Positions 3,484 to 42,645 of a stretch of DNA of 64,000 nt are shown here, one piece after another. Within the stretch, counting starts at the first letter, position 1; each line of letters begins with the position of its first letter. Source of the DNA: Clostridia bacterium (GTDB taxonomy: Bacteria > Bacillota > Clostridia > UBA1381); the NCBI GenBank assembly GCA_045637525.1, contig JAZTZP010000150.1:64151-128150 (forward strand), read 5' to 3'. The position numbers were made by a program, and so were the translations under genes. The notes under the pieces are model-generated. The model was not told the DNA's origin and made no database searches. It was given only the letters and a program-made list of their open reading frames with translations.

Positions 3484-3486
3484 AAA

Positions 3487-7543: not shown

Positions 7544-7557
7544 ATTTAAGTCAGTTT

Positions 7558-7645: not shown

Positions 7646-7646
7646 G

Positions 7647-7677: not shown

Positions 7678-7680
7678 CAA

Positions 7681-7825: not shown

Positions 7826-7856
7826 TATTTATTGAGTTATATCGTATCGAGTTTGT

Positions 7857-9606: not shown

Positions 9607-9621
9607 GGGATGGGTTTTTAA

Positions 9622-10338: not shown

Positions 10339-10348
10339 GAGATAAATT

Positions 10349-25065: not shown

Positions 25066-25094
25066 TTGACAAATTTGATGTTTTGGTGTACAAT
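25066..25094 (+). promoter_or_regulatory. sigma-A promoter of the glycan locus
   Basis: TTGACA 25066-25071, 17-nt spacer, TGtACAAT (25089-25094). It leaves a ~290-nt untranslated leader. Confidence 0.6.
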
Positions 25095-25385: not shown

Positions 25386-26027
25386 ATGAATAATACGGAG
25401 CATGTTGAAGCAAAAATTAAAATTGAAGATGTGGTTGTAGAACCTAAAATTGTATTTGAGTTCATAAAAAGAGTTTTCGATATTGTTGCATCGTTAATTG
25501 CAATAGTTATATTAGCAATACCGATGATCATAATTGCAATCATTGTTCGGATGGATTCTCCCGGAAAGGCTATTTATGTGCAGGAGCGGTTGGGCAAAAA
25601 CAGTAAGCCATTCAATGTCTATAAGTTTCGGTCTATGAGAATGGATGCCGAAAAGGATGGGGCTCAATGGGCACAGAAGAATGATACTCGCGTTACTAAA
25701 TTCGGTTCCGTATTAAGAAAGACAAGACTTGATGAACTTCCACAGTTGTTTTGTATTTTAAAAGGTGATATGAGTATAGTCGGACCCCGTCCTGAACGTG
25801 AAATATTCTATAATGAATTTGATAAGTATATTGATGGGTTCAGACAAAGATTATGTATTACTCCCGGTTTAACAGGGTGGGCTCAGATTAATGGAGGATA
25901 TTCACTAAAGCCGGAGGAAAAGATAATTTTCGATATTGAGTACATAAAACGCCGGTCAATTATATTTGATTTAAAGATAATATTCAAAACTGTTGCAATT
26001 GTATTTAATCACAAAGGAGCATATTAG
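25386..26027 (+). CDS. initiating phosphoglycosyl transferase (small bacterial sugar transferase, EpsL/WbaP C-terminal type)
   Basis: KRVFDIVASL...SPGKAIYVQERLGKNSKPFNVYKFRSMRMDAE...RLDELPQLFCILKGDMSIVGPRPE. Confidence 0.85.
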   Translation: MNNTEHVEAKIKIEDVVVEPKIVFEFIKRVFDIVASLIAIVILAIPMIIIAIIVRMDSPGKAIYVQERLGKNSKPFNVYKFRSMRMDAEKDGAQWAQKNDTRVTKFGSVLRKTRLDELPQLFCILKGDMSIVGPRPEREIFYNEFDKYIDGFRQRLCITPGLTGWAQINGGYSLKPEEKIIFDIEYIKRRSIIFDLKIIFKTVAIVFNHKGAY

Positions 26028-26041
26028 AAGGGGTTTAGGAA

Positions 26042-26779
26042 ATGGATATAACTGTTAGTATCATAACTGCAACTCATAACAGTGCATGTACTGTGGCGAG
26101 AACTGTTGAATCAGTTTTAGCACAGACGGTACCACCGAAAGAGTACATAGTATTTGACGGATTATCAACGGATAATACTGTCGAAATCATTGAAAGTTAT
26201 AGAGAGCAATTTGATCAAAAGGGAATAAAACTAATTGTTAGATCTGAATCTGACAGCGGTATGTATGATGCTATCAACAAAGGTGTTGAATTAGCGACAG
26301 GTGATATTATCGGAAATGTAAATAGTGATGATTATTATGAACCGATAGCTGTTGAGACTGTAATCGATACGTATAAAAAGACCGGATTTGGAATGATGTA
26401 TGCTGATTTGAGGATTGTAAAACCCACCGGTAATATAGTAAAAAAAGCTAAATTAAAGAAATTTGCAACTACAAGATATTGGAATCATCCTACTACTTTT
26501 ATTACCAAGGAAGTGTATAAAGAATATCAATATAAACTTGAAAGTATGTATGATGATTGTGATTTAATGCTTAGAATAAGAAAAAGCCCACATAAGGTTG
26601 TGGTTGTGAATAAAATTCTCTCCAATTTTTGCTTTGGTGGTATGAGTACACAGAAAAATCTCGATGATGTTATTGAACGTATAAAAATACGATGTAAGAT
26701 TTATAAGAATAATGGATATGGTTTTATCTATTATATTGATAGTTTTTTGATGGAATTTGTTAAGTTTATATTAGCGTAA
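26042..26779 (+). CDS. family-2 glycosyltransferase
   Basis: VSIITATHNSACTVARTVESVLAQT...FDGLSTDNT...NSDD (DxD-type). Confidence 0.8.
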   Translation: MDITVSIITATHNSACTVARTVESVLAQTVPPKEYIVFDGLSTDNTVEIIESYREQFDQKGIKLIVRSESDSGMYDAINKGVELATGDIIGNVNSDDYYEPIAVETVIDTYKKTGFGMMYADLRIVKPTGNIVKKAKLKKFATTRYWNHPTTFITKEVYKEYQYKLESMYDDCDLMLRIRKSPHKVVVVNKILSNFCFGGMSTQKNLDDVIERIKIRCKIYKNNGYGFIYYIDSFLMEFVKFILA

Positions 26780-26795
26780 TTATATGGAGTACAAG

Positions 26796-27941
26796 ATGAA
26801 AATATTGCATATTTGTTTAGGAAATTATTTTGTTGATAACTACACATACCAAGAGAATTTATTAACTAAGTATCATAAAAAGATGGGATGTGAGGTAGAA
26901 GTTATTGCTTCTTTAGAGACTTTCGATACAGATGGTAATACGTCATATCTAAAAGAAGCTAATACCTACTATAATGAAAATGATATTAAAGTTACTAGAT
27001 TAAAATATTTTGGTTTGGCGGGATTTTTGTCGAAAAAATTTAAAATGTTTGTGGGTCTTTATCGTGCAATTGCGCATGCCAAACCAGATATAATATTTAT
27101 TCATAATTGTCAGTTTTTAGATATTCGTTATGTAGTTAAATATTTAAAAACACATAGAAATGTTAAAGTTTTTGTTGATAGCCATGCAGATTATTCTAAT
27201 AGTGCAACGAATTGGTTTTCTAAAAATATTTTACATAAGTTTTTCTGGAGGAGATGTGCACATTTGATCGAGCCGTATGCTACCAAGTTTTATGGTGTAT
27301 TGCCAACAAGAGTAGATTTCTTAGTTGATTTATATAAACTTCCTAAGGAAAAATGCGAACTTTTGGTGATGGGTGTTGATGATGAAATGGTTGATATTAA
27401 TAGTTCTCCAAAAGTAAGAGAAAGAGTCCGGAATGACTATAATATTTTGGACGATGAATATTTGATTGTTACAGGTGGTAAAATTGATTTGTTTAAAAAG
27501 CAAACATTGCTGTTAATGGATGCTGTGAACAATATGTCAGTAAACATAAAATTAATAGTATTTGGCTCAGTTATACCGGAATTAAAGAAAGAAGTAGAAA
27601 AAAGATGTTCCGAAAAAGTTAAATACATAGGTTGGCTTAATTCTAAAGATACGTATCAATATTTTTCTGCTTGTGATTTTGCAGTTTTTCCGGGAAGACA
27701 TTCAGTAATATGGGAACAGGTAGCTGGACAGGGAGTACCTCTGATAGTGAAATATTGGGACGGAACAACACATATTGATTGTGGTGGTAATGTCAACTTT
27801 TTGTATAATGACAGTGTAGAAGAAATAATGGAAAGTATAGAGCAAACAATAGAAAATCTCGATGAAATGAAAAAAAGAGCAAGCGAGTTTTCAGGTGATT
27901 TTTTGTATTCTGAGATTGCAAAAAGAAGCATATGTTTATGA
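26796..27941 (+). CDS. GT-B fold glycosyltransferase (GT4-like)
   Basis: MKILHICLGNYF... at the N-terminus. The C-terminal half carries a GT4-like nucleotide-sugar pocket (FPGRHSVIWEQVAGQGVPLIV). ATG 26796 has a 6-nt spacer after GGAG. ATG 26784 is the alternative start. Confidence 0.65.
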   Translation: MKILHICLGNYFVDNYTYQENLLTKYHKKMGCEVEVIASLETFDTDGNTSYLKEANTYYNENDIKVTRLKYFGLAGFLSKKFKMFVGLYRAIAHAKPDIIFIHNCQFLDIRYVVKYLKTHRNVKVFVDSHADYSNSATNWFSKNILHKFFWRRCAHLIEPYATKFYGVLPTRVDFLVDLYKLPKEKCELLVMGVDDEMVDINSSPKVRERVRNDYNILDDEYLIVTGGKIDLFKKQTLLLMDAVNNMSVNIKLIVFGSVIPELKKEVEKRCSEKVKYIGWLNSKDTYQYFSACDFAVFPGRHSVIWEQVAGQGVPLIVKYWDGTTHIDCGGNVNFLYNDSVEEIMESIEQTIENLDEMKKRASEFSGDFLYSEIAKRSICL

Positions 27942-28115
27942 GATAATATGAACAGAAATGAAAAACTTTGAGAATTCAAGAATATAAAATGAATTTATAA
28001 AAGTACATAATATAAGCATGTATATTTTCAAATTCAAAACGTAAGAACGTGTAGTTCAGGTTTATAATTTGAAAAAAATAATAAATCGGGTTATTAAAAT
28101 TAGAGGTGCAAGCAT

Positions 28116-29384
28116 ATGGGTTTTTTTGCTTTAGCAATGGCATATTCATACAGTTTTTTCTTCATTTTACAATCTATTTTAGGATTAGATGAAGGCGGTA
28201 TGGGTTTAAAAATATACAGTGTCATTATGACGTTTTTTTGCATATTCATATATATAAGAGATGTTTTAAGAAAAAAAGAACTTAGAGTCAACGATCTAAA
28301 ATATATTTGGGCAATTGTGTTGATAACAATTTTATTTTATTGGACAAGTGTTAAATTCGGTGGTGCAAATGAAAGGTATAAGGGGTTATTCTTGAGTTTT
28401 GGTGTCCGGTGTATACCATCGTTGTTGGTAGCGCTTCTTTTGGCGAAATATGATAATTACATAGATAAAATGATAAAAGCTTTGCCAGTTTTTATGTTTA
28501 TGTATACATTAGCTGTACTGTTAGCTGTATTAAATAAGAGTGACTCTAAGTATGTTAAAGAGCTGTTTGATACAGGAGGAATGAATTATCAAAATGTATC
28601 GTACTATTCTTGTTATGCGTTCTTGATGAACTACTTGATTATAGGTCTGCATGGAAAAGTCAAATTTCCGGGTGTGTTTAATAATGTCGTTGCAAAAATA
28701 TTTTTTGTTGCATTATTACCTGTGCAGGTTTATTGTATGCTATCGGGCGGCGGGCGAGGAGCGTTGGTATTATTCTTTATAGGAGTACTTATATTAACCT
28801 TTTTTTGTTTTGGTGACAGATTTAAAAGAGTGGAAACTTATGTGTATTTAATAATTATAGGGGTAATAGTTGTCATAGTATATAGATATCTTATTAATTC
28901 TGAAGGTTTAAGTACCGGGATACGAAGATTAACGAATTTTTTCACCGATGCAAATGCTATAAAGACTGACGTTAGAAATGATTTAAGAGAAGATGCCATT
29001 TTGCTGTGGGGGGCAAGTCCGATATTTGGTTGGGGAATGGGCTCGGTGTTCTATGTCTTTGAAGTGTATTCACATAATATGGTTTCTGATATGCTTATGG
29101 AAACAGGTATTGTTGGTACTATGATAATGGTTATTTGCATGATTATATCTTTAAAAACGATGTTTAAGCTTATTAGTCGTGATAGTAAATATGTTATAAT
29201 TGCATTGGTACTTATTTGCAGTATTGTTATGCTCCAGTTTTCGAATTATTATTTAAGTGATAGCGGTTTATGGTTCGCGCTGTTTTATTTTATGGCGAAG
29301 AATGATATTCAAAAACGCGAAGCCTGGATGAATTCGTTGACAGGTGAAAGTACAGCACCAATTGTTGGCGATAAAAAGTCGTAA
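28116..29384 (+). CDS. O-antigen polymerase/ligase-like polytopic membrane protein (Wzy candidate)
   Basis: About 10-12 TM helices and a large loop with basic residues (RRLTNFFTDANAIKTDVRNDLREDAILLW). No other polymerase candidate is present in the locus. Confidence 0.6.
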   Translation: MGFFALAMAYSYSFFFILQSILGLDEGGMGLKIYSVIMTFFCIFIYIRDVLRKKELRVNDLKYIWAIVLITILFYWTSVKFGGANERYKGLFLSFGVRCIPSLLVALLLAKYDNYIDKMIKALPVFMFMYTLAVLLAVLNKSDSKYVKELFDTGGMNYQNVSYYSCYAFLMNYLIIGLHGKVKFPGVFNNVVAKIFFVALLPVQVYCMLSGGGRGALVLFFIGVLILTFFCFGDRFKRVETYVYLIIIGVIVVIVYRYLINSEGLSTGIRRLTNFFTDANAIKTDVRNDLREDAILLWGASPIFGWGMGSVFYVFEVYSHNMVSDMLMETGIVGTMIMVICMIISLKTMFKLISRDSKYVIIALVLICSIVMLQFSNYYLSDSGLWFALFYFMAKNDIQKREAWMNSLTGESTAPIVGDKKS

Positions 29385-29453
29385 ATGATATGGTGCGAGG
29401 TTAAGTGTTTAAAATTAATTATTGAGGTAATGAATATAGGGAGGTGTTACTTG

Positions 29454-30347
29454 ATGATATATGTATACCCTAAATTTTCAAAATTCGAATTACCTTTTGT
29501 AAGGATAGGTGGGGCCGGATTAGGGAATTTATTGTTTACTTATTCTCGGGCGCTGATTTATGCAAATGAAAATTGTTATAAGCTTATATGGCCTACATGG
29601 CCGAGTTTTAAGATTGGTCCGTATTTAAGACGAGAGCTGGATAAGCGGTTTTATGGCGATTTATTTGTAAATAATTCCGGATATGTTGACGGAATAGAAA
29701 AATTTAAAATTTTAGCTTTCAATAAAAAGATAAATCAGGACGATGTTGAATCTGTTAAAGATAATGATGTTGTTATTTTTGATAAATTTAAAATGAATTT
29801 TGAGGGGATAAAAAAGTACAGAGATGTAATCAGAGATGACTTAATAAAAAATCTTAGTGAGAAAAACAAAAAAGCACTTGATTTTGATTTTACAAATTCG
29901 ATAAGTGTACATATAAGACTTGGAGATTTTGGTGCACCATCTGTTGATAAGCTTAAGCGTGGCTGTAATAATACAAGTATACCCATAGAATGGTATGTGA
30001 AAGTTATTCTGCAAATTAGAAAGATTATAGGCAGAGATATAAAAGTGTATGTTTTTTCAGATGGAAGTGATGAACAACTTGATGATGTGCTTAAATTGAT
30101 TAATGTTGAGAAAATAACGTTTGGAACAAGTATTGCCGACATTATCGCATTGTCAAGATCGAATTTGTTTATTGCGTCGGGTTCTTCATTTTCGATGTGG
30201 GCAAGATTTTTGGGTAATCTTTCTACAATTACGTATACTAATCAATTAAAAGACAAAATATGTGATGAGAATGGTTTTGAGTTTGAAACCGATAATGCTT
30301 GTTTTACATCTGAAATGAAAGAAAGTATAATAAGATTATTGAAATAA
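29454..30347 (+). CDS. putative glycosyltransferase, fucosyltransferase-superfamily-like (GT11-like motifs)
   Basis: SVHIRLGDF resembles the GT11 HxRRGDY motif. VFSDGSDEQ and ASGSSFSMWARFLG resemble GT11 motifs II-III. ATG 29454 lies 9 nt after GGGAGG. Confidence 0.45.
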   Translation: MIYVYPKFSKFELPFVRIGGAGLGNLLFTYSRALIYANENCYKLIWPTWPSFKIGPYLRRELDKRFYGDLFVNNSGYVDGIEKFKILAFNKKINQDDVESVKDNDVVIFDKFKMNFEGIKKYRDVIRDDLIKNLSEKNKKALDFDFTNSISVHIRLGDFGAPSVDKLKRGCNNTSIPIEWYVKVILQIRKIIGRDIKVYVFSDGSDEQLDDVLKLINVEKITFGTSIADIIALSRSNLFIASGSSFSMWARFLGNLSTITYTNQLKDKICDENGFEFETDNACFTSEMKESIIRLLK

Positions 30348-30361
30348 GGAGAACGTATTTG

Positions 30362-31306
30362 ATGAAGTACATAATTCATATTTTGAAAAATATCAAACGT
30401 TTTTGTTATAACCACAGTGATAATGAGTTTAAAAAAACAAAGATTGTCAACAATACTGAATTAAATGCGGATAAGACATTTTATATTATACGCAGAACTG
30501 TACAGGCCGGTTTTTTTTCAAATTTTTTATTTATTCTTGGTCATATGATATATGCGGATAAAAAGGGATATATACCTGTTGTTGATATGAAAAATTATAT
30601 CACATTATATAATGAAGAGAATGCTATTAACGGAACCATGAATGCCTGGGAATATTATTATGAGCAAGAGTTTGATTTAGAGGAAGTATATAAAAGCAAG
30701 AATGTGATTTTATCAGATGATTTATATTTGTCACAGTATGTTCCCAGCTACGTCGGCAAATATGCATTTTGCATTGATAAACAATATATAAGCAACATAA
30801 ATAGTTACATTAATAAGTATATTTGCATGAAGCCAAATGTTTATGAGTTTTATTCGCAACTAAGGGAAGAGATGAATAATAGGTGTGTTTTGGGAGTTCA
30901 TATACGGGGTACTGATATGAATGTTTGCCAGGATCATCCCCAACCGTTGGGGGTAGAAACATTTATTGAGAACATTAAGCATTTTATTAAATATAATCAC
31001 GTTGATAAAATATTGCTTTGCACTGATGAGCAATATATAGAAAGTGTAGTAAATGAAGAGTTTGGAGATTTAGTGATTTGTTCTAATTCATATCGTGCCA
31101 AAGAAGGAGCAACAAGCGGTATACATTTGGAAAAAACAATAGAAAATGTAAGAGAAAATCACAAATATATGTTGGGACTTGAAGTGCTAAGGGATATGAT
31201 GGCTTTGTCGGAATGTGATTATTTAATGTGCGGAAAATCAAATGTTCCATTGGTCGCAATGATTTATAATAATAATAATTATAAACAAATCAAACTTATA
31301 GTTTGA
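30362..31306 (+). CDS. putative glycosyltransferase of an uncharacterised family (HxRxxD motif)
   Basis: LGVHIRGTDM, LLCTDEQ and CDYLMCGKSNV echo the motif order of the neighbouring ORF. I cannot assign a family. Confidence 0.35.
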   Translation: MKYIIHILKNIKRFCYNHSDNEFKKTKIVNNTELNADKTFYIIRRTVQAGFFSNFLFILGHMIYADKKGYIPVVDMKNYITLYNEENAINGTMNAWEYYYEQEFDLEEVYKSKNVILSDDLYLSQYVPSYVGKYAFCIDKQYISNINSYINKYICMKPNVYEFYSQLREEMNNRCVLGVHIRGTDMNVCQDHPQPLGVETFIENIKHFIKYNHVDKILLCTDEQYIESVVNEEFGDLVICSNSYRAKEGATSGIHLEKTIENVRENHKYMLGLEVLRDMMALSECDYLMCGKSNVPLVAMIYNNNNYKQIKLIV

Positions 31307-31542
31307 TACTGTGCTATTAACCATTTGAAAATATTAAATGTTTCTGTGGTGAATTTACATGAAGATATTTGTTTTTTACGGTGTAAAACGTTGGATTTAT
31401 AAGTATAGTTACGTATAGTAACAGGATAGATTGTAAGAAATAGTAGTTTGTATGCATAGCAATCTAATATTAAAAAACGTGTAAAACTTAATTTTTTTGA
31501 ATTTTACAATCGGCTAATATGAATTTTTAAGGAGATATTAAT

Positions 31543-32562
31543 GTGGAAGAAGTAGTTGTTTCAGTAATATGTGCGGCTTATAATCATGAAAGGTACATAG
31601 CACAGGCTTTAGATGGTTTTGTTATGCAAAAAACAAACTTTAAATTTGAAGTGTTGATAAACGATGATGCTTCAACAGATGCTACGGCTGAAATTATTAA
31701 ATCATATGAGAAAAAGTATCCAGATGTGATTCGAGCGTTTTATAGCGAAAAAAATGAATATAGTCAAGGTATTAGTCCGACATTAAAGCTCTATGAGAAT
31801 GCGAATGGAAAATACATTGCGCTTTGTGAAGGTGATGATTTTTGGATTAATGAAAATAAACTACAAATTCAGGTTGATTATATGGAATCACATCCGGAAT
31901 GTACAATATGCGGTCATTCTGCGTATAATTGCTACGAAAACGGAGTTATAAAATGTAATTTGTTTAAAAGTTTTGATAAGGACTGTGTTGTTTCGACTGA
32001 AGATGTAATTAGCAGATGGATTTTTCCTACACAATCTATCTTATATCGTGCTTCAGCTCGAGTTCCTTTCATTGTTCCGTTTAAAAAAGATGCACCATGT
32101 GGGGACTACCCCTTAGCTGTCTATTTAGCACTTAAAGGGAGTGCGTTTTATTTTGCCGATGCTATGAGTGTATATAGAAATGGTTCGGTTTCGTCAGTAT
32201 CGAAAAAGTGGAGAAATGATGATTTTAAGACAGTTATATTTTATGAAAAATTCAATCAATTATTAGATCGTATTGATGAATATACTGATGGTGCGTATTC
32301 TGTGTGTATTAAAGACCACAAATTACGTTGTGATTGCTATATAGCAGTTGCTATGCATAAAGTTAAAGAAATTTTATTTGGACAAAAATTCAAATCTATC
32401 TCTTATAAGAAAAAGGGTTATAGTATTGTCACTATAATAATGAAAAAACTTCATATATGGAAGCTAAGCTGCTATGTTTTTGACAGCATTAAATATAAGT
32501 TAGCATTAAAAAACACAAAAAAAATTAAACAAAAAAACATTATTGTGTTAGATAGAGTTTGA
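31543..32562 (+). CDS. family-2 glycosyltransferase
   Basis: VSVICAAYNHERYIAQALDGFVMQKTNFKFEVLINDDASTDATAEII and EGDDFW. GTG start 8 nt after AAGGAG. ATG 31541 is out of frame and hits a stop. Confidence 0.8.
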   Translation: MEEVVVSVICAAYNHERYIAQALDGFVMQKTNFKFEVLINDDASTDATAEIIKSYEKKYPDVIRAFYSEKNEYSQGISPTLKLYENANGKYIALCEGDDFWINENKLQIQVDYMESHPECTICGHSAYNCYENGVIKCNLFKSFDKDCVVSTEDVISRWIFPTQSILYRASARVPFIVPFKKDAPCGDYPLAVYLALKGSAFYFADAMSVYRNGSVSSVSKKWRNDDFKTVIFYEKFNQLLDRIDEYTDGAYSVCIKDHKLRCDCYIAVAMHKVKEILFGQKFKSISYKKKGYSIVTIIMKKLHIWKLSCYVFDSIKYKLALKNTKKIKQKNIIVLDRV

Positions 32563-32610
32563 AAATTGTTAAGTATTTTTATCTATAGTATGCAGTGAAA
32601 GGTGAAAGTA

Positions 32611-34056
32611 ATGAATGATACGAATTTAAAACGTAATGTTTTATCAGGTCTCGTTTGGCAATTTTGCGAAAAGTTTGTTGTTCAGTTTGTTTTGTTTGCA
32701 GTTCAGATTGTTTTGGCAAGGTTGCTTCTACCTGAGGATTTTGGAATAATAGGAATTATTTCCGTATTTAATATGTTGGCTCAGGTATTTGTTCAAAGTG
32801 GATTTGGAACTGCATTAATACAAAAAAAGTCAATTGATGATGTGGATTGTTCATCTATTTTCTATGTAAGTATGTTAATTTCAGCTTTGTTATATGCGTT
32901 GATATTTTTTGGTTCTCCATTTGTTGCAAAGTTTTATGAGTGTAAAGAACTATCATCGTATATGAGAGTGCAGTTTCTTGGATTGTTTGCAAGTCCAATA
33001 ATAAACATTCAAACGGCGTTGTTACAGAAAAAATTGGATTTTAAAACAAGCTTTATCAGGAATTTTATAGCAAATTTAGCTTCAGCTGTTGTTGGTATAT
33101 CAATGGCTATAACCGGGTTCGGAGTATGGTCGCTCGTATTTTCGAATTTAACAACCAATATTGTAAGTGCAATTGTATTAACTATGACGGTACGTTGGCT
33201 TCCTAAATTAACTTTTTCAATGTCGAAGGTTAAAGAACTGTTTTCTTATGGAAGCAAATTGCTTTTATCAAGTTTACTTGATACTTTATATAACAATATG
33301 TATTCTTTGGTTATAGGTAAATTTTTTGACACAAGTGTACTTGGATATTATAACAAAGGTAAAAATTTTCCTAGTTTAGCAGTAAATACTATCAATGGGA
33401 CAATACAAACGGTAATTTTTCCGGCTTTATCAAAATGTCAAGATGATAAAGTCAAATTAAAAAATCTAATGCGTCGTTCAATTGTAACATCAACGTTTTG
33501 TGTATTTCCTGCTATGTTTGGGTTAGCTGCTGTTGCAAAACCTTTAGTTTTGATATTGCTTACTGAGAAGTGGTTGCCGTCAGTTTTTTTCTTACAGGTG
33601 TGTTGTTTTACATATATGCTTTGGCCTATTCATACAGCTAATTTACAGGCTATAAATGCAATAGGCAGAAGTGATGTTTTTTTAAAACTTGAAGTTATTA
33701 AAAAGGTTGTAGGTGTTATAACGTTGATATTAACAATACCGTTCGGTGTACATGTTATGGTAATCGCCAGAGCATTTACCGGTATTTTTAGTACTTTTAT
33801 AAATGCATTCCCAAATAAGAAATTACTAAATTATAGTTTTTTTGAGCAGATGAAAGACATATTGCCATCGTTTGTGTTATCACTGGTAATGTTTGGATGT
33901 ATATATATAATTTCGTTTTTAAACATTAATGTATATTTAATGATAGTAGTACAAATAGTTGTTGGAAGTTTTATTTACATCTTTGGCGCTAAATTGATGC
34001 ATTTTGAATGTCTTGATTACATTATACAAATAATTAAAGGCTATATTAAAAGATAA
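32611..34056 (+). CDS. wzx: Wzx-type oligosaccharide flippase (MOP superfamily)
   Basis: About 12-14 TM helices. The N-terminus is GLVWQFCEKFVVQFVLFAVQIVLARLLLPEDFGIIG, followed by GFGTALIQKK. Confidence 0.8.
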   Translation: MNDTNLKRNVLSGLVWQFCEKFVVQFVLFAVQIVLARLLLPEDFGIIGIISVFNMLAQVFVQSGFGTALIQKKSIDDVDCSSIFYVSMLISALLYALIFFGSPFVAKFYECKELSSYMRVQFLGLFASPIINIQTALLQKKLDFKTSFIRNFIANLASAVVGISMAITGFGVWSLVFSNLTTNIVSAIVLTMTVRWLPKLTFSMSKVKELFSYGSKLLLSSLLDTLYNNMYSLVIGKFFDTSVLGYYNKGKNFPSLAVNTINGTIQTVIFPALSKCQDDKVKLKNLMRRSIVTSTFCVFPAMFGLAAVAKPLVLILLTEKWLPSVFFLQVCCFTYMLWPIHTANLQAINAIGRSDVFLKLEVIKKVVGVITLILTIPFGVHVMVIARAFTGIFSTFINAFPNKKLLNYSFFEQMKDILPSFVLSLVMFGCIYIISFLNINVYLMIVVQIVVGSFIYIFGAKLMHFECLDYIIQIIKGYIKR

Positions 34057-34057: not shown

Positions 34058-34402
34058 TTGAGAAATATCATTTTGAAGAAGAAGTTAGCAATGCGCGCCG
34101 GAGAAACTGATATTGCTGAGTTGGTGCAAAATGAGCTGATTTATAGCCAATTTGAACGATTGTCTGGATTAACTGGTCATATTGCCAATATGGATTGTGA
34201 TATTTTCTTGATTGATAATGTCCCTTATATTCTGGAAATGAATGCACGTTTTGGAGGAGGGTATCCATTTAGTTATATGGGAGGATGCGATTTGCCGAGT
34301 GCTATTGTTGAATGGTGCAAAGGTAATAATGTACCTGATGAAATGTTATCAGTAAAGTATGGTAGCGTTGGATATAAGGAGTTATTTATCACGGAAGTTT
34401 GA
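34058..34402 (+). pseudogene. 5'-truncated ATP-grasp gene remnant (C-terminal ~100 residues only)
   Basis: CDIFLIDNVPYILEMNARFGGGYPFS is the C-terminal Mg/ATP motif of an ATP-grasp fold. Compare EFSARTGGG in the intact paralog downstream. There is no pre-ATP-grasp or central domain, the ORF has only a TTG start, and it begins 2 nt after the wzx stop. Confidence 0.55.
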
Positions 34403-34442: not shown

Positions 34443-35678
34443 ATGAAAGCTTTGGTTTTAGCTGGTGGTTTTCCACAAATTGCATTAATTAAAGAATTGA
34501 AGTCAAGGGGTATAAGAGTGCTTTTGGCAGATTATAATGAGAAACCTGTTGCGTTTGAATATGCTGATGAGTTTTACAGAGTATCAACGTTAGATGTTCC
34601 TGCAATTACAGAACTTGCACGAAAACAAGGTGTTGATTTTTTGATTACAGCATTTACGGATCAGGCGTTATTAACTGTAGCACAAGTATCCGAGATTTTA
34701 GAATTACCATGTTATATTGATTATAAAACTGCATTGAATGTTACAAATAAATCATATATGAAAGATGTTTTTAAAAAACATGATATATCTACAGCGAAGT
34801 ATATCGTTATGGAAAATTTAGATTTAGCGTCGATATCGGATTTAAAATATCCCATTATAGTAAAACCTGTTGATTGTAACAGCTCAAAAGGAGTTAAGAA
34901 GGTTTATGATGAGGATGAGTTGAAATTAGCGTTTGATGAAGCAGTATGCCTTAGCAGAACAAAAACAGCTATTGAGGAAGAATTTATTGAAGGAATGGAA
35001 ATAACAGTTGATGTTCAGATTGAAAATGGTAAGGCTCATGTATTGTCGAAGGCGTATAGTGATAAGATTGCAGATGATGACAAATTTGTCATTTTCAGAA
35101 CACGTTTTCCGGTAAGTGAAAATAAAAGAGTACATAATCAAATCGAGGAAACTGCCCAGAAAATTGCAGATGCTTTTGGACTGAAAAATTCTATGATGCT
35201 CATACAGATGATTTCAGATGGTGAGAATGCGTATGTATTGGAATTTAGTGCCAGAACTGGTGGTGGAGTGAAATACGATCTTATAAAAAGAGTTTCCGGT
35301 TTTGATGTTGTAAATGCAGTTATAGATCTAACATTACAAAAAAATCCGAAAGTTGAAATTAAATCACCCGTTGCTAAATACATATCAAATACTTTTATTT
35401 ACTGTAATCCCGGAATTTTTGATCATTTGGAAGGCTTTGAGGATTTAAAAAATGATAATATTATTGAAGACTATTATCTGTTTAAATGGCAAGGTGCTGA
35501 AATGGGTGGTGCTACAAACAGCGGAGATCGAATTGCAGGATTTACCATACAAGCTGATATAAAGGATGAAATTGAAGACAAATATAATTCGGTAATAAAG
35601 AAAATTAAAGTTATTGATAGTTATGGCAATGATATTTTGCGGAATGATTTGTTGACACCGTTGGAATATGAAGAATAG
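34443..35678 (+). CDS. ATP-grasp family ligase (carboxylate-amine ligase candidate)
   Basis: Rossmann-like pre-domain MKALVLAGGFPQIALIKELKSRGIRVLLAD. The ATP-grasp core is YPIIVKPVDCNSSKGVKKV and YVLEFSARTGGG. Confidence 0.75.
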   Translation: MKALVLAGGFPQIALIKELKSRGIRVLLADYNEKPVAFEYADEFYRVSTLDVPAITELARKQGVDFLITAFTDQALLTVAQVSEILELPCYIDYKTALNVTNKSYMKDVFKKHDISTAKYIVMENLDLASISDLKYPIIVKPVDCNSSKGVKKVYDEDELKLAFDEAVCLSRTKTAIEEEFIEGMEITVDVQIENGKAHVLSKAYSDKIADDDKFVIFRTRFPVSENKRVHNQIEETAQKIADAFGLKNSMMLIQMISDGENAYVLEFSARTGGGVKYDLIKRVSGFDVVNAVIDLTLQKNPKVEIKSPVAKYISNTFIYCNPGIFDHLEGFEDLKNDNIIEDYYLFKWQGAEMGGATNSGDRIAGFTIQADIKDEIEDKYNSVIKKIKVIDSYGNDILRNDLLTPLEYEE

Positions 35679-35697
35679 AATTTAGGAGGTAGTTTTT

Positions 35698-37056
35698 ATG
35701 CCAATAGCACTTACATATTTAGTGATAATGCTTTTAGTTATTTGTATTTGGTTCATTGCTCTTAAAAGACCTGTTTATGAGGCTATATTTATTAGTTTTG
35801 TAGTATTAGTGGCTGTAAGTAATTCTTTGGGAAGTATTTTTGAATACATTCATGAAGGTTTATCTACATCATTAATTTATTCAATGGTTGCTTTTGTAGC
35901 AATGTCACAGTTGTTGACAAAAACAAAAATTATAGATAGTTGTATAGGTATTATTTTATCATTGCTTGGTCGCGTAACTGGTGGTGCAGGATATGTTTCG
36001 GTCGTGGCAAGCAGTTTTATGGGAGCTCTTTCGGGCAGCGGTCCGGGAAATGTAATGTCAACAGGAGTAATTACAATACCGGCAATGAAGAAAAGTGGTT
36101 TTCCGCCGGAATTAGCCGCAAACGTTGAAAGTACAGCAAGTTATTTAGGAAATATGATACCACCATCATCGAATATTGTTGCAGCACTTGGTGCCTTTAT
36201 GGCATTATATCCGGATGAAAATATTTCAACGGGTAAATTTTGGATTGTGCTTTGGGGGATTGCGTTATGGTTTATTTTGCAGAGAATTTTAACTGTTTTC
36301 ACTTTCTGTAAGTACTACAAAGTAAAACCTACGAGTAAAGATGAGTTGCCGAACTTTAAAGAAACTTTAAAGCAGGGGTGGTATGGATTATTGCTTCCTA
36401 TAATTATTCTTGTTCCGTTTATATTAGATTCTCTTCTAAAAGATAATTTTATTACGAGCAGATTGGGTGATGTTGGAGCAAAATATTTTTCAGGCTCTTT
36501 GTTAATATTTATTGCCGGAATCGCAGCTATATACACTGTTTTTATGGCGAAAGATAAATCTGAGATAACATTTTCTAAAATGGCACAGGTGTTTTCAAAT
36601 GGAATAAAAAGTCTTTCACCTGCTATAGCTACTTGCATATTCGGATATATGATAGGATCGTTATTTGCAGATCAAAATGTTTCTGAAAGCTTGGAAATGT
36701 TTATATTATCGCTTAAATTTGGAAAATTAGGATTAGTGTTGTTTATTCCACTATTAACCTGTTTCCTTGGTATGATTATCCCGGGATCTTCATTAGTAGT
36801 TATGTTTGGACCGGTATTTATTACAGCATTTGCAGCTGTAGGAGTTAATCCTTTGCTTGCTGCAGCGATGCTTCCATGTATTTGTGGTACGATGTGTGGG
36901 ATTACACCGCCATTAGCATTAGGAATGTATGCCGGTATGTCTATTGCAGAATCGGATTTTACAAAGACGGTAAAAAATGATTTATGGTGGGTGGCTTTGC
37001 ATTATATTATGGAAGTCATTGTATTAATGGGCTGGTTGCCGATTATCGGACTGTAA
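35698..37056 (+). CDS. TRAP-transporter large permease (DctM)-like membrane protein
   Basis: GGAGYVSVVASSFMGALSGSGPGNVMSTGVITIPAMKKSGFPPELAANVESTASYLGNMIPPS closely parallels the conserved DctM segment (GG..hV.VVAS..F..ISGS......LG...IPAMKK.GY). About 12 TM helices. Confidence 0.7.
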   Translation: MPIALTYLVIMLLVICIWFIALKRPVYEAIFISFVVLVAVSNSLGSIFEYIHEGLSTSLIYSMVAFVAMSQLLTKTKIIDSCIGIILSLLGRVTGGAGYVSVVASSFMGALSGSGPGNVMSTGVITIPAMKKSGFPPELAANVESTASYLGNMIPPSSNIVAALGAFMALYPDENISTGKFWIVLWGIALWFILQRILTVFTFCKYYKVKPTSKDELPNFKETLKQGWYGLLLPIIILVPFILDSLLKDNFITSRLGDVGAKYFSGSLLIFIAGIAAIYTVFMAKDKSEITFSKMAQVFSNGIKSLSPAIATCIFGYMIGSLFADQNVSESLEMFILSLKFGKLGLVLFIPLLTCFLGMIIPGSSLVVMFGPVFITAFAAVGVNPLLAAAMLPCICGTMCGITPPLALGMYAGMSIAESDFTKTVKNDLWWVALHYIMEVIVLMGWLPIIGL

Positions 37057-37074
37057 GAAAGGAGACTGGTTTTT

Positions 37075-37353
37075 ATGAAAGAACTTCTTAAAAAAATTGG
37101 GATGTTTCTGAAATTGATTTATGGGTATGGAATAATGATATGTTTGTTTGCAGGTGGATTCACATTTTTTGGGTATTTGGCAGCATTTTTTATCGGAGGT
37201 GAGGTTGCTACGCAAATATGTGTTGTGATATATAAAAGTATCATTCCGGTAATTGTTTATATATCAAGTGTTTTGGTTGTGTTAGGATTATTATCAATGT
37301 ATTTATGTGGTGAAATGGCGCTTTCTATAAAAGATAGTAATAAGAATAAATAA
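37075..37353 (+). CDS. small membrane protein (92 aa, 2-3 TM), possibly a divergent DctQ-like partner
   Basis: Hydrophobic ORF 18 nt after the DctM-like gene, with GGAGACTGG upstream. It shows no recognisable similarity to DctQ, and the gene order is reversed from the usual QM. Confidence 0.45.
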   Translation: MKELLKKIGMFLKLIYGYGIMICLFAGGFTFFGYLAAFFIGGEVATQICVVIYKSIIPVIVYISSVLVVLGLLSMYLCGEMALSIKDSNKNK

Positions 37354-37392
37354 TGTAATTAGTATGACCTAAGTGCTTGAAAGGAGCTTTTT

Positions 37393-38484
37393 ATGATTAA
37401 TGTAACACGTTCATCAATGCCGGAATTTGATGAATATATTGAGGAAATAAGAGGATTATGGGATAGCCGTTGGCTTACAAATATGGGCGTTAAGCATAAT
37501 GAATTGCAGGACAAGCTATGCGATTATTTGTCAGTTGATAATGTGTCGCTCTTCACTAATGGGCATCTTGCATTGGAAAGTGCAATATCTGCACTGGGAT
37601 TATCAGGCGAAGTTATAACAACTCCTTTTACGTTTGCGTCAACAACACAGGCGATAGTTCGTTGTGGGTTGACTCCGGTTTTTTGCGATATTAATGCAAG
37701 TGATTATACCATAGACTGTGATAAGATTGAAGAGCTTATCACAGAAAAGACTTCGGCAATTGTCTCTGTTCACGTTTACGGAAGTGTTTGTGATGTAAAA
37801 CGAATTGATGAGATAGCAAAAAAGTATAATCTTAAGGTTATATATGATGCCGCACACGTATTTGGAGTAAGAGTGGGAGAAAAGGGAATAGGATCGTTTG
37901 GAAATGCATCTATGTTCAGTTTTCATGCGACTAAAGTGTTTAATACAATTGAGGGCGGATGTGTTACATATCAAGATGAAACTCTTACAAAAAGACTTCA
38001 AATATTAAAGAATTTCGGAATGCAGGATGAAGAAAACTATCCCGAAATCTCCGGAAACTCAAAAATGAACGAGTTTCAGGCGGCCATGGGGATATGCAAT
38101 TTAAGACATGTTTATGAAGAAATCAAGAAGAGAAAAGCAGCAGTTTTAAGATATATAGAGCGTTTGAGTGATATTAAAGGTATAACGCCATGGCATGAAC
38201 AAGAGGGTGTAAAACACAATTATGCATATTTTCCGGTATTATTTGATAAGGCTGTTTTTGGAAAAAACAGGGATGAGGTTGCAGATGTTCTGAAGAAAGA
38301 GAATATATTTGCAAGAAAATATTTTTATCCGTTAACAAGCAGTTTTGAATGCTATAAAGGAAGATTTGAAATACAACAGACACCGGTAGCGGAAAAAATT
38401 GCAAAGAATGTTCTTACATTACCGCTCTATGCAGATTTATCAATACATGATGTTGACAGGATTTGTGATATAGTTTTAAATTAG
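37393..38484 (+). CDS. DegT/DnrJ/EryC1/StrS-family PLP-dependent sugar aminotransferase
   Basis: SSMPEFDEY..., TPFTFASTTQAI and the PLP lysine context SFHATKVFNTIEGG. Size 363 aa. Confidence 0.85.
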   Translation: MINVTRSSMPEFDEYIEEIRGLWDSRWLTNMGVKHNELQDKLCDYLSVDNVSLFTNGHLALESAISALGLSGEVITTPFTFASTTQAIVRCGLTPVFCDINASDYTIDCDKIEELITEKTSAIVSVHVYGSVCDVKRIDEIAKKYNLKVIYDAAHVFGVRVGEKGIGSFGNASMFSFHATKVFNTIEGGCVTYQDETLTKRLQILKNFGMQDEENYPEISGNSKMNEFQAAMGICNLRHVYEEIKKRKAAVLRYIERLSDIKGITPWHEQEGVKHNYAYFPVLFDKAVFGKNRDEVADVLKKENIFARKYFYPLTSSFECYKGRFEIQQTPVAEKIAKNVLTLPLYADLSIHDVDRICDIVLN

Positions 38485-38504: not shown

Positions 38505-39380
38505 ATGAAAGGAATAGTATTAGCAGGAGGAAAAGGAACACGTCTTTATCCTATGACTAAAGTAACATCAAAGCAATTATTGCCGATTTATGATAAGCCT
38601 ATGATATATTATCCTATATCTACGCTGTTTTTAGCGGGAATAAAAGAAATTTTGATTATATCAACACCCGAAGACACACCTGTGTATAAAAAGCTTTTAG
38701 GTGACGGTTCGCAGTGGGGTGTTACTTTTGAATATAAGGTTCAGCCCGAACCAAAGGGATTGGCTCAGGCGTTTATTCTTGGTGAAGAATTTATAGGTGA
38801 TGACAGCGTATGTCTTATTTTAGGTGATAATATTTTCTATGGAAAAGACTTTACGAGGACTTTAAATTGTGCTCAGCAGGAAATGAACGGAGCAGTAATA
38901 TTTGGTTATCCGGTGAAAAATCCTACTGCATTCGGAGTTGTTGAATTTGATAAGGATAATAATGTCATATCAATCGAGGAGAAGCCACAATATCCAAAGT
39001 CTGATTATGCTGTTCCGGGATTATATTTTTATGACAATAGTGTTGTTGAAATTGCAAAGAATGTTAAACCATCGGCACGTGGTGAAGTTGAAATAACATC
39101 TGTAAATAATGAATATCTAAGAAGAGGAACATTAAAAGTTCAGCTTATGCAGAGAGGCATGGCATGGCTTGATACCGGTACGCCGGATGGAATGCTGAGA
39201 GCCAGCGAATTTGTTCAGACTGTTCAGGAGATGCAAGGTTTTTATATATCTTGCCTTGAGGAAATAGCATGGAGACGCGGATTTATTAATACAGAACAAC
39301 TTATTAAGATAGGAAACGAGCTTAAAATGACAGATTACGGACAATATTTATTGTCGTTGCCTGAGGAGGAAAATAAATGA
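38505..39380 (+). CDS. rfbA: glucose-1-phosphate thymidylyltransferase
   Basis: [49 protein letters not shown] and [10 protein letters not shown]. Confidence 0.95.
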
Positions 39381-40396
39381 AGATACTAATAACCGGAGGT
39401 GCCGGATTTATCGGTAGTAATTTTGTGTATTATATGCTTGATAAGCATCCGGACTATGATTATGTTTGCCTTGATGCACTAACATATGCCGGCAATCTTA
39501 AGACATTGAAAAGTGCGCTGGAATTGCCTAATTTTAAGTTTATAAAAGGCGATATCGCTGATAGAGATACTGTATTTAATCTTTTTAAAGAGGAAAAATT
39601 TGATGTTGTTGTAAACTTTGCGGCAGAAAGTCATGTAGACCGTTCGATAACGGATCCGGGAATATTTTTAAGAACAAATATATTGGGAACGCAAACTTTA
39701 ATGGATGCATGCCGTGAATATGGGATAACAAGATACCATCAGGTTTCTACTGATGAAGTTTACGGCGACCTGCCGCTTGATAAACCTGAACTGTTCTTTA
39801 CCGAAGAAACTCCGATACATACTTCGAGTCCTTATTCAGCAAGTAAAGCAAGTGCTGATTTATTGGTTCTTGCTTATTACAGAACATATGGATTGCCTGT
39901 ATCTATTTCGAGATGTTCAAATAACTACGGTCCGTATCATTTTCCGGAAAAGCTTATACCGTTAATGATTGCAAATGCCTTAAACGATAAACCGCTTCCG
40001 GTTTACGGTGAAGGGAAAAATGTTCGTGACTGGTTATATGTTGAGGATCATTGTTCTGCTATTGATTTAATAATTCATAACGGCAGAGTAGGCGAGGTAT
40101 ATAACATAGGCGGACATAATGAAAAAGCAAATATAGATGTTGTAAAGATAATTATAAATCAGCTTGGCAAGAGTGAGGAGCTAATAACTTATGTAAAAGA
40201 CCGTGCGGGACATGATTTGCGATATGCAATAGATCCGACAAAAATACATAACGAGCTTGGCTGGTTGCCTGAAACAAAGTTTGAAGACGGTATTAAACTT
40301 ACAATAGAATGGTATTTAGCAAATAAATCCTGGTGGGAAGATATAATAAGCGGCGAATATCAGAATTATTATAAACAAATGTATGAAAACAGATGA
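39377..40396 (+). CDS. rfbB: dTDP-glucose 4,6-dehydratase
   Basis: [23 protein letters not shown], the [11 protein letters not shown] catalytic YxxxK and DHCSAID. Confidence 0.95.
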
Positions 40397-40409
40397 AGGG
40401 AGTGTTTTG

Positions 40410-41399
40410 ATGAAGATAAGTAGTAGGCTGAATTATATAGATGTAATGAAAGGACTCGGAATTCTGCTGGTTATTTTGGGACATTGTATTAGCTCAACGG
40501 ATAATTTTGTTAATAAATTTATATTGTCGTTTCATATGCCATTGTTTTTTTTCGCATCAGGATATTTGTATAGCAGGAAAAGTAATGACCGTGAATATTT
40601 TTCAGGTAAGGTAAAAGGGTTAATAGTGCCTGTTTTGTTATATCAAATAATAAATATAATTACCAAACTTGTATTTTCACAGATTTCAGAACGATTATCT
40701 GATTTAATAATGTTGCGTGGTTTTTGGTTTATCTTTGCATTGTTTTATATAAGTATAATGTATTATGTAATAGAAGGAATGCTTAAATTAAAAATCAAAG
40801 ATGAAAATTCTTATAAAATTGATTTCTTTATGGGATGTATATCTATATTTTTTGTGATTATAGGCTGTATTTATGGGAAAATTTTTGTTAATACTACCTC
40901 GTATGTAAATCAAGCATGTGTTGGGTACATATTTTTTTGGATTGGGCACTTGATACGTAACAGAATAGAATTGAAATGTCAAAAGTTTATTAACAATAGA
41001 TGGATATTGTTAATAAGTGGCTTTGTACTTTTCGCAGTTACTGGCATAGTATCGCAATTTAATTCATCGGTGCTGATGTATTTGAACTCATATGGAAATG
41101 TAGTTTTCTTTATAATATGTTCTATGTTAGGTGTGTTTGCATTGTTTTTTGTATCACGAGCAATAGCAGACAACGCTGTTTTGGAGTTTTTCGGAAAGAA
41201 TTCTCTTGTCATATTGGTAACGCATTTTTGTGTTTATCGTTTATTTGGTTTCTGTGTTAGACATATTCTGCGTGGGGGTGCTGAATGGATACACATTATT
41301 ATTGTATTTTTATTAACTGCTGTAGCAGAATGGGTAATTGTTGTTGTTGTGAATAAGTTTTTCCCTTTTTTTGCTGGTAAATTTAATTATGAAAATTAA
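40410..41399 (+). CDS. acyltransferase-3 family membrane O-acyltransferase
   Basis: RLNYIDVMKGLGILLVILGHC...FHMPLFFFASGY and about 10 TM helices. ATG 40410 lies 7 nt after GAAGGGAG. Confidence 0.8.
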   Translation: MKISSRLNYIDVMKGLGILLVILGHCISSTDNFVNKFILSFHMPLFFFASGYLYSRKSNDREYFSGKVKGLIVPVLLYQIINIITKLVFSQISERLSDLIMLRGFWFIFALFYISIMYYVIEGMLKLKIKDENSYKIDFFMGCISIFFVIIGCIYGKIFVNTTSYVNQACVGYIFFWIGHLIRNRIELKCQKFINNRWILLISGFVLFAVTGIVSQFNSSVLMYLNSYGNVVFFIICSMLGVFALFFVSRAIADNAVLEFFGKNSLVILVTHFCVYRLFGFCVRHILRGGAEWIHIIIVFLLTAVAEWVIVVVVNKFFPFFAGKFNYEN

Positions 41400-41419: not shown

Positions 41420-42595
41420 ATGAAAATAGCAGTTGCAGGAACCGGATATGTTGGGCTTTCTAATGCTATATTGCTTGCACAGAGCAATGAGGTGTGGGCG
41501 GTTGATATTATTCCGGAGAAGGTTGATATGATAAACAGTGGTAAGTCTCCGATTGTGGACGCTGAGATTGAAGATTATCTTGCAAATAAGTCGCTTAATC
41601 TTACAGCAACTATTGATGGAAAAGAGGCATATGACGGGGCGGAGTTTATTATAATTTCTACGCCGACTAATTATGATCCAAAGAAGAATTATTTTGATAC
41701 TTCATCCGTTGAGGCTGTTATTGAGCAGGTTATTAAAACTAATGATAGTGCAATAATGGTTATAAAATCAACAGTTCCGGTCGGATATACCGAGAGTGTG
41801 CGTGAAAAATATAATTGTGACAGAATAATGTTTTCGCCTGAATTTTTGCGGGAGGGACGAGCTTTATATGATAATCTCTATCCGTCAAGAATTATTGTCG
41901 GAAGTGATGAAAATCTGAAGGGCAAGGCAGAGCAGTTTGCGGAATTACTTGCTGAAGGTGCGATAGAAGAGGATATTCCAAAGCTTATAATGGCACCAAC
42001 AGAAGCAGAAGCTGTAAAGCTTTTTGCGAATACATATTTGGCACTTCGAGTATCATATTTTAATGAGCTTGATACATATGCAGAGCTTCGCGGACTTGAT
42101 ACAAAGTCTATAATTGAAGGTGTTGGTCTTGACCCAAGAATAGGAAATCATTATAACAATCCTTCATTCGGTTATGGCGGTTATTGTTTGCCAAAGGATA
42201 CAAAACAGCTTCTTGCAAACTATAATGATGTTCCGAATAATATTATTGCAGCAATAGTAGACGCTAATCGCACCCGTAAAGACTTTATAGCAGAACGGAT
42301 TTTAGAGCGTGATCCTAAAACTGTCGGGATTTATCGTCTAACCATGAAATCCGGCTCGGATAATTTCCGCCAGAGTTCAATTCAGGGTGTTATGAAGAGA
42401 ATTAAGGCTAAAGGTATTGAAGTTGTTATATATGAGCCAACGCTTAAGGAGGACACATTCTTTAATTCTGCTGTGATTCGTGATATAAATGAATTTAAAG
42501 AAAAATCAGATGTTATAATCGCAAACAGATATAATTCTGATCTTGAAGATGTTTTAGAAAAAGTTTATACAAGAGACTTATATTTCAGAGATTAA
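41420..42595 (+). CDS. ugd: UDP-glucose 6-dehydrogenase
   Basis: [38 protein letters not shown] and the catalytic Cys in [13 protein letters not shown]. Confidence 0.9.
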
Positions 42596-42602
42596 TTAAC
42601 TG

Positions 42603-42645
42603 CCCCTGATATTCATTCGCGAGTATCGGGGGTGATTTGTTTACA
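42603..42645 (+). terminator. possible terminator at the end of the glycan locus
   Basis: 9-bp stem cccctgata/tatcggggg (one G-U pair) with a 12-nt loop. The following T-tract is weak (tgatttgttt). Confidence 0.4.

Follow-up and report, generated by a model that had tools for sequence, protein, structure and literature searches.

TRAP transporters operate with an obligate binding protein, and the membrane components of the TAXI type are described as fused QM proteins in every case (PMC11574862); for TAXI systems, glutamate, glutamine, and alpha-ketoglutarate are the substrates known (PMC11574862). A 2018 review of TRAP and TTT systems discusses orphan binding proteins and rare orphan TctA proteins, but not orphan DctM proteins. 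We describe here a DctM-like permease encoded in a 64,000-nucleotide stretch of the genome of a gut Clostridia bacterium (contig JAZTZP010000150.1 of assembly GCA_045637525.1; hereafter the window), where its gene lies in a polysaccharide locus between genes for an ATP-grasp ligase on one side and a small membrane protein and a DegT-family sugar aminotransferase on the other. The four open reading frames are on the forward strand at positions 34443–38484 and encode, in the order ligase, permease, small protein, and aminotransferase, products of 411, 452, 92, and 363 aa, in agreement with a first-pass annotation of this DNA; the peptide quoted in that annotation corresponds to residues 95–157 of the 452-aa protein.

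The permease and the 92-aa protein constitute a conserved pair, which in the window is embedded in a tightly packed Wzx/Wzy polysaccharide operon, and among related loci the pair is enriched beside carboxylate-activating enzymes, either ATP-grasp ligases or adenylating enzymes with carrier proteins. We propose, with confidence evenly balanced for and against, that the pair imports an organic acid or an acidic amino acid and that the ATP-grasp enzyme ligates that acid to a dTDP-4-amino-4,6-dideoxyhexose.

A Q-less permease related to TAXI transporters

Assignment of the 452-aa protein as a DctM-like TRAP component is borne out by a match to PF06808 (DctM; E = 3.8e-53, 181 bits), which extends from residue 14 to residue 448 of the protein and from position 2 to position 411 of the 413 in the profile. 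Its scores lie under the NCBIfam cut-offs both for TIGR00786 (dctM; 105.7 against 268.45) and for TIGR02123 (TRAP_fused; 143.9 against 320.65), the latter being its best NCBIfam model. An AlphaFold2 model (pLDDT 75.6) has as its top Foldseek matches the TRAP QM structures 9pym, 8y4w, 8thi, and 7qha, with TM-scores of about 0.65, and DASS transporters come next.

Homologues of the permease number more than 4,000, and the top 120 are all about 450 aa long and 69–80% identical. A scan with one genome per species finds the gene in at least 467 genomes, and nearly every one of the best 80 among the 467 comes from gut or rumen Clostridia (Acutalibacteraceae, Oscillospiraceae, Lachnospiraceae, and Ruminococcus), with one from the Treponemataceae; most of the genomes carrying the pair are fragmented metagenome assemblies. 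Clustering at 50% leaves only about 20 full-length representatives of about 450 aa, at 24–58% identity, and the next relatives outside this clade, about 30% identical (E about 1e-25), are the fused QM permeases of 620–720 aa that belong to TAXI-type TRAP systems. Glycine and proline motifs of the hairpin tips and helix breaks are common to the clade and the TAXI permeases (G91, GG95–96, G113–N118, TIP126–128, PP155–156, and PP404–405), whereas E28 and R196 are invariant in the permease clade alone and not in the TAXI permeases.

Because these motifs are shared, and because the predicted fold matches those of TRAP QM proteins, the transport machinery appears to have been retained. Judged from its sequence and model, the 452-aa protein qualifies as a genuine elevator-type transporter core that is sister to the M portion of the TAXI permeases and lacks Q, and sequence comparison likewise sets the clade of approximately 450-aa permeases apart as its own group, distinct from the 620–720-aa fused TAXI proteins.

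A small membrane protein paired with the permease

Scans of Pfam and NCBIfam place the 92-aa protein in no family. It has 109 homologues of 70–133 aa, those with a name being annotated as hypothetical, and there are 15 invariant residues in the family. It had been described as a protein with two or three transmembrane segments, and while its character as a small membrane partner holds, AlphaFold2 predicts two long helices (residues 2–40 and 42–90; pLDDT 81.6) and not three. A small gene of this kind lies directly downstream of the permease gene in 82 of 83 distinct loci, and in the single exception the available sequence stops 75 bp past the permease gene. The pairing is kept even in locus L089, whose permease, only 44% identical, is the most distant relative to retain it. 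We infer from this constancy that the two proteins form a complex, and we note that no natural fusion of permease and small protein was seen among the homologues of either.

The TAXI permeases have a described C-terminal three-helix extension (PMC11574862), and the small protein was considered as a split-off Q subunit or as a counterpart of this extension. Profile comparison with the Q domain and with whole TAXI permeases, the extension included, was negative, with hhalign giving a probability of 0.1% for the small protein against the TAXI Q domain, so that neither idea is backed by sequence.

Directly upstream of the pair in L089 (positions 5402–6907) is a gene for a 501-aa protein of odd composition, with a hydrophobic N-terminus resembling a signal peptide, a SpaA-type domain, and, of a D-Ala-D-Ala-ligase-type ATP-grasp domain, the C-terminal part only.

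Absence of recognizable binding proteins and Q subunits

Neighborhoods were searched over about 10 kb on each side of the permease gene, and canonical TAXI loci, which were the main yield of a metagenome scan aimed at distant members of the clade, served as the control set. A PF16868 TAXI binding protein adjoins the permease in 32 of the 37 TAXI control loci with enough upstream sequence; the TAXI binding-protein hidden Markov model finds no match among the 1,334 proteins of 84 clade loci. A model of the TAXI Q domain likewise has no match in the 84 clade loci, as against 61 in the TAXI loci. The DctQ family PF04290 gave no match, although it was looked for through the Pfam scan only. No recurrent binding-protein family is present among 68 otherwise unclassified neighbors, which is the sole basis for excluding nearby DctP-type proteins, and the lipoprotein-like neighbors of the pair are scattered and form no recurrent family; three that were scanned as binding-protein candidates proved to be TraB/GumN proteins, TPR proteins, or members of no family.

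Pfam and NCBIfam scans of the window itself reveal no evident DctP, TAXI binding protein, or DctQ. The absence of DctP and DctQ remarked on in the first-pass annotation is thus seen both here and around the relatives, and on its question of whether a dctP is ever adjacent, no binding-protein family recurs beside them.

Organization of the polysaccharide operon

The features of the operon, all on the forward strand of the window, are as follows.

25386–34056, forward strand: upstream part of the polysaccharide operon (Wzx/Wzy-dependent), from Pfam matches
25386–26027, forward strand: priming sugar transferase, first gene of the polysaccharide operon (Pfam)
28116–29384, forward strand: Wzy-like polymerase (Pfam)
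32602–34056, forward strand: Wzx flippase (Pfam)
34058–34402, forward strand: ATP-grasp remnant of 114 aa, matching NF009404 at profile positions 224–319 only
34443–35678, forward strand: ATP-grasp ligase of the L-amino-acid-ligase or PylC-like type, 411 aa (Pfam, NCBIfam, and solved relatives)
35698–37056, forward strand: DctM-like large permease, 452 aa, predicted to adopt the elevator-type TRAP M fold and lacking a fused Q domain (PF06808 and fold)
37075–37353, forward strand: 92-aa membrane protein of an undescribed family, predicted two-helix hairpin (AlphaFold2 and conserved pairing)
37393–38484, forward strand: DegT-family sugar aminotransferase, DesI-like, 363 aa (PF01041 and 2po3)
38505–39380, forward strand: RmlA (TIGR01207, 475 against an equivalog cut-off of 361)
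39377–40396, forward strand: RmlB (TIGR01181, 494 against an equivalog cut-off of 365)
40383–41399, forward strand: membrane acyltransferase, family 3 (PF01757)
41420–42595, forward strand: UDP-glucose 6-dehydrogenase-like protein (Ugd candidate), last gene of the operon (TIGR03026)
42601–42634, forward strand: terminator-like hairpin closing the operon, with a 14-pair stem and a T-rich tail

The priming transferase gene is followed by genes for a glycosyltransferase of family GT2, a GT4 protein, the Wzy-like polymerase, a GT11-like protein, a 315-aa protein (30359–31306, in the middle of the operon) that matched no Pfam or NCBIfam family, a second GT2 protein, and the Wzx flippase. Intergenic gaps are 18–39 bp, or the genes overlap, and a Shine-Dalgarno sequence precedes each of the permease, 92-aa protein, and DegT genes, with AGGAGG 8 nt ahead of the permease ATG. 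A promoter-like site is present at 25066–25094, ahead of the priming transferase gene, and the hairpin after the Ugd candidate is the strongest, and the only strong, terminator-like site between 24000 and 43000. A near-consensus promoter-like site (TTGACA, 18 nt, TAGAAT) also lies at 35652–35681, inside the end of the ATP-grasp gene and just upstream of the permease; in this AT-rich region such sites are no more frequent than expected by chance.

RfbA and RfbB (here RmlA and RmlB) had been named correctly, both being above their equivalog cut-offs. The naming of Ugd stands in part, as the candidate passes the cut-off of the nucleotide-sugar dehydrogenase subfamily TIGR03026 (336 against 190) but not that of the UDP-glucose 6-dehydrogenase equivalog (631 against 757).

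The ATP-grasp ligase and its constant partners

The 411-aa ligase has clear ATP-grasp domains (PF07478, 1.8e-13, and PF13535); its LAL_C2 match falls just under the cut-off (28.6 against 29.4 bits), and that to PylC-like_N is weak. Among solved structures it is closest to 4dim and to the L-amino acid ligase BL00235 (3vot, 3.2e-17), and it belongs to a large family with 63–76% identity that is found in the same taxa. It is the proposed amide-forming enzyme of the locus. The 114-aa remnant immediately upstream of it is probably a pseudogene, comprising the C-terminal third of a second ATP-grasp protein of the PRK12767 or RimK-like type. Intact versions of 336–338 aa are present at the same position in L034 (7685–8701; 330 bits against a cut-off of 316) and L005 (8520–9530), and it follows that the window locus has lost one of two ancestral ligases.

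The DegT protein (PF01041, 2.6e-95, 320 bits) has DesI as its best solved relative (2po3, 1.3e-61), and its DegT fold, this best match, and the position of RmlA and RmlB directly downstream are those of a 4-aminotransferase of the DesI/VioA type acting on dTDP-4-keto-6-deoxyglucose, the compound that RmlA and RmlB supply. It probably makes dTDP-4-amino-4,6-dideoxyhexose, although the stereochemistry of the product is not fixed by the comparison, since its score is under the DesI equivalog cut-off (TIGR04427, 302 against 650). No N-acyltransferase for the amino sugar was recognized in the window locus by Pfam scans.

The association was also viewed from the side of the ligase, by sampling seven members of its family regardless of whether a transporter was present. 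The permease and small protein occur in three of the seven loci. A fourth, L167, has the order Wzx, ATP-grasp, MmgE/PrpD, DASS/CitMHS transporter, DegT, RmlA, RmlB, an arrangement found on many contigs, such that an MmgE/PrpD gene and a DASS/CitMHS-type transporter gene (9246–11946) fill the slot held in the window by the DctM-like pair. Two more have ATP-grasp, DegT, and RmlAB without a transporter, and the last lies elsewhere. The constant partners of this ATP-grasp family are thus DegT and RmlA/RmlB, and these contexts define a stable core of ATP-grasp, DegT, and RmlAB in which an anion transporter is optional and may be either this pair or a DASS protein.

Genomic contexts of the permease pair

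The commonest neighbor of the pair is a gene for a LysR regulator, directly upstream and usually divergent, in about 65 of the 83 loci; loci without it usually have an ATP-grasp gene directly upstream of the pair instead. Within six genes of the permease, ATP-grasp genes are found in 29 loci and DegT genes in 22. When attention is confined to the 36 well-flanked loci, which have at least 5 kb on both sides, 22 contain two or more glycan genes and 19 an ATP-grasp gene.

The complete order of ATP-grasp, permease, small protein, and DegT, with gaps of less than 40 bp, is seen in the window and in five other loci, of which L166 and L034 are of the capsule type (L034 with a different ATP-grasp gene) and L004, L168, and L009 are flagellin glycosylation islands of Lachnospiraceae. 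The first-pass annotation suggested looking for co-occurrence of the four genes in other Firmicutes, and the order does recur, but the four are not obligately joined, and conservation is greatest for the set of LysR, permease, and small protein. In a neighbor-joining tree the operon-embedded forms branch early and the LysR cassettes form the bulk, although this tree is without support values and is only suggestive. The capsule locus L166, which shares the module of the window, also includes an ATP-grasp gene of the TupA-like kind adjoining an alanine racemase gene (3246–5325), which suggests a second, separate amino-acid decoration.

A second context consists of an adenylating enzyme, a 75–77-aa carrier protein, and an MBOAT or hexapeptide (LbH) acyltransferase. 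Such dlt-like sets (adenylating enzyme, carrier, MBOAT, and DltD-like or hexapeptide acyltransferase) are seen in L044, L059, L070, L074, L052, and L087, where they adjoin the LysR–permease–small protein cassette within six genes of the permease. This context also resembles the acyl-carrier route by which perosamine is N-acylated in Vibrio.

The third context, in L043 (2742–9722), L077, and L087 (6715–12161), is an operon encoding a PrpD-like protein, an aldo-keto reductase, a phosphonopyruvate decarboxylase (TIGR03297, 395 against an equivalog cut-off of 312), a PF15617 C-C lyase, fumarase-type alpha and beta subunits, and a 300-aa protein without a family. No phosphoenolpyruvate mutase is recognizable in it, and it may represent an unusual pathway for a phosphonate or an organic acid. 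Common to all three contexts is the handling of small carboxylic acids.

Other transporters are found nearby in some loci. About ten loci of one Acutalibacteraceae synteny group, including L040, L041, L043, L052, and L056, have an MFS transporter nearest to the L-lactate or oxalate-formate family two or three genes downstream of the permease; NamZ and a Gfo/Idh/MocA oxidoreductase accompany it. Locus L165 encodes the serine/threonine transporter SstT (6613–7833, above the equivalog cut-off), divergent from an ATP-grasp gene and with the LysR–permease–small protein cassette 2 kb from this region; glycan genes are absent.

A proposed role for the pair and its alternatives

In the interpretation we favor, the permease and the 92-aa protein would be a two-subunit secondary transporter derived from a TAXI/TRAP membrane component and dispensing with both binding protein and Q subunit, and would bring into the cell a small anionic compound present in the gut, a di- or tricarboxylic acid or an acidic amino acid being most likely. 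RmlA, RmlB, and the DesI-like aminotransferase would produce dTDP-4-amino-4,6-dideoxyhexose; the ATP-grasp ligase would activate the imported acid as an acyl phosphate and couple it to the 4-amino group; and the N-acylated sugar would enter the repeat unit, to be flipped by Wzx and polymerized by Wzy. Ligation of an imported acid to the amino sugar was one of the readings offered in the first-pass annotation, and it fits the comparative data best, because DegT and RmlA/RmlB are the constant partners of the ligase and because L167 has an anion transporter in the same slot; the direction of transport, the nature of the substrate, and the acceptor of the ligase are inferred. The presence of LysR beside the pair in most loci is as expected of substrate-induced uptake, and the lack of a recognized N-acyltransferase for the amino sugar also speaks for the proposal.

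The hints as to substrate diverge; they are the glutamate and alpha-ketoglutarate of the TAXI relatives, the RimK-like second ATP-grasp genes, the PrpD-like enzymes and DASS transporter, which suggest di- or tricarboxylates, and the operon with phosphonopyruvate decarboxylase. By analogy with the TAXI substrates, the DASS and PrpD substitution in L167, and the RimK-like second ligases, we consider C4–C6 di- or tricarboxylates and acidic amino acids to be the candidate acids.

Several observations weigh against the proposal. A dedicated importer is not obviously needed for a common metabolite such as glutamate, and the transporter is absent from three of the seven sampled ATP-grasp loci, so that the ligase does not need it. 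About a quarter of the well-flanked loci (10 of 36) have none of the glycan marker genes used. The biosynthetic-looking operon beside the pair in L043, L077, and L087 could equally suggest export of a product, and, as the search spans flanks of about 10 kb, a gene for DctP or a TAXI binding protein elsewhere in the genome would escape it.

The loci without marker genes bear on an alternative in which LysR, permease, and small protein are a nutrient-uptake cassette, complete in itself and horizontally mobile, that hitch-hikes in variable regions such as glycan loci and has no functional link to ATP-grasp or DegT. We consider this unlikely, even though it accounts for the conservation of LysR with the pair above all other associations, for flanking genes that vary widely (the MFS lactate-like transporter, NamZ, and an amino-acid ABC system among them), and for identities of 67–80% across different families and one Treponemataceae genome, which suggest transfer. 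It does not explain why in the window, as in no fewer than five further loci, LysR is missing and the pair is enclosed in the operon, with ATP-grasp on one side, DegT on the other, and gaps of under 40 bp, in capsule loci and flagellin islands alike, nor why a different anion transporter occupies the same slot in L167; moreover, most of the well-flanked loci that have marker genes also have an ATP-grasp or adenylating enzyme.

It seems improbable that the pair instead exports a small anionic product or by-product of adjacent biosynthetic genes, or helps to move the modified lipid-linked unit, whose export or modification the first-pass annotation had raised. The link to the operon with phosphonopyruvate decarboxylase, PrpD-like protein, C-C lyase, and fumarase-type subunits is in keeping with export, and the fold matches include AbgT-family members of the same transporter superfamily (MtrF and YdaH) that are called efflux pumps in the titles of their PDB entries. 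However, the TRAP/TAXI and DASS systems known so far take up or exchange small organic anions (PMC11574862), and the pairing with LysR fits inducible uptake. As for the lipid-linked unit, Wzx is already encoded in the locus, an elevator transporter for an undecaprenyl-linked glycan is without precedent, and nothing points to such a role.

We think it very improbable that the permease is a normal TRAP/TAXI membrane component whose genes for binding protein and Q subunit lie elsewhere in the genome. The span of the search and the fragmented state of most of the assemblies leave room for such genes, but TAXI binding-protein and Q-domain matches number zero in the 84 clade loci while the same searches succeed in the controls (32 of 37 loci and 61 matches), and the clade stands apart from the fused TAXI permeases in its length, in its invariant E28 and R196, and in having a constant small partner of its own.

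Least probable of all is that the ATP-grasp enzyme amidates glucuronic acid, supplied through Ugd, with an imported amine: a Ugd-like gene is present in the same operon, and ATP-dependent amidation of this kind is established for Cj1438C of the Campylobacter capsule (PMC11800379), the precedent put forward for it in the first-pass annotation, but a close Ugd homologue is absent from related loci (with only weak matches of 24–25% in L019 and L081) and Ugd is not seen in the sampled ATP-grasp contexts, Cj1438C is TupA-like and of a different ATP-grasp subfamily, PF14305 (TupA-like) not being among the nine Pfam matches of the window ligase, and permeases of the TRAP and DASS types carry anions, not amines.

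Import of an acid for ligation to the amino sugar thus remains our preferred explanation. A wider generalization is more doubtful, and we advance it only tentatively: the pair may be the first TRAP-derived class to lack both binding protein and Q, with which gut Clostridia would scavenge a specific exogenous organic acid that ATP-grasp or adenylating enzymes then write onto capsule and flagellin glycans. A clade with an M-type core and a new two-helix partner would break both of the rules of TRAP organization, the obligate binding protein and the fused QM, and the pair would be a minimal system in which to ask about the contributions of Q and of the binding protein. In glycobiology, it would point to a way of decorating surface glycans that is widespread in gut and rumen Clostridia and unstudied, in which an amino-dideoxyhexose is N-acylated by an ATP-grasp ligase with an acid perhaps taken from the environment; this bears on antigenic variation of capsules and flagella, and if it is true the chemistry of surface antigens would depend on the metabolites available in the gut. 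The module is a concrete handle for finding the glycan substituent.

Comparison with described systems

The TAXI TRAP transporters (such as VcGluPQM and PMI1055/1056) are the closest sequence relatives of the permease, sharing the motifs of the transport domain and, by prediction, the elevator fold. They differ in that the permease has no fused Q (452 aa against 620–720 aa) and no TAXI binding protein nearby, and in that it is partnered by a separate protein of two helices, similar neither to Q nor to any part of a TAXI permease. The DctPQM TRAP transporters (such as SiaPQM and IseQM) are related through the Pfam DctM match and the similarity to solved QM structures (TM-score about 0.65), but identity is 17–18%, the dctM score is far below the cut-off (106 against 268), and neither a Q subunit nor a recurrent binding protein was recognized around the permease.

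DASS/CitMHS transporters resemble the permease in needing no binding protein, in having an elevator fold, and in belonging to the same superfamily, and a member stands in the corresponding slot of L167; they are nonetheless a different family, and whereas DASS proteins are usually said to dimerize through their scaffold domains, the permease comes with a small dedicated partner.

Import of a compound for surface decoration has analogues in the choline permease LicB of the lic operon and in SiaPQM, which takes up sialic acid for sialylation of lipooligosaccharide. As proposed here, a dedicated importer supplies an exogenous small molecule for a surface glycan in these systems, but the transporter families, the substrates, and the chemistry are different, the prediction for the window being an amide bond made to an amino sugar by an ATP-grasp enzyme. 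Bacterial acquisition of sialic acid for lipopolysaccharide has been reviewed (PMC9631793).

Among enzymes, the L-amino acid ligases and PylC-like proteins, represented by BL00235, are the closest solved relatives of the window ligase with known activity; unlike them, it is partnered with a nucleotide-sugar aminotransferase and not with a peptide pathway, and its predicted acceptor is an amino sugar. The C-terminal domain of Cj1438, the glucuronate amidoligase of Campylobacter jejuni, is like the proposed ligase an ATP-dependent amide-forming enzyme encoded in a capsule locus (PMC11800379), but the window ligase is not TupA-like.

In the literature we found no description of a DctM-type permease in a glycan locus, as the first-pass annotation had supposed, nor of any TRAP-type permease family that lacks both Q and binding protein. 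Known superfamilies account for the transporter core and for the enzymes; it is the subunit composition of the transporter and the logic of the operon that are new.

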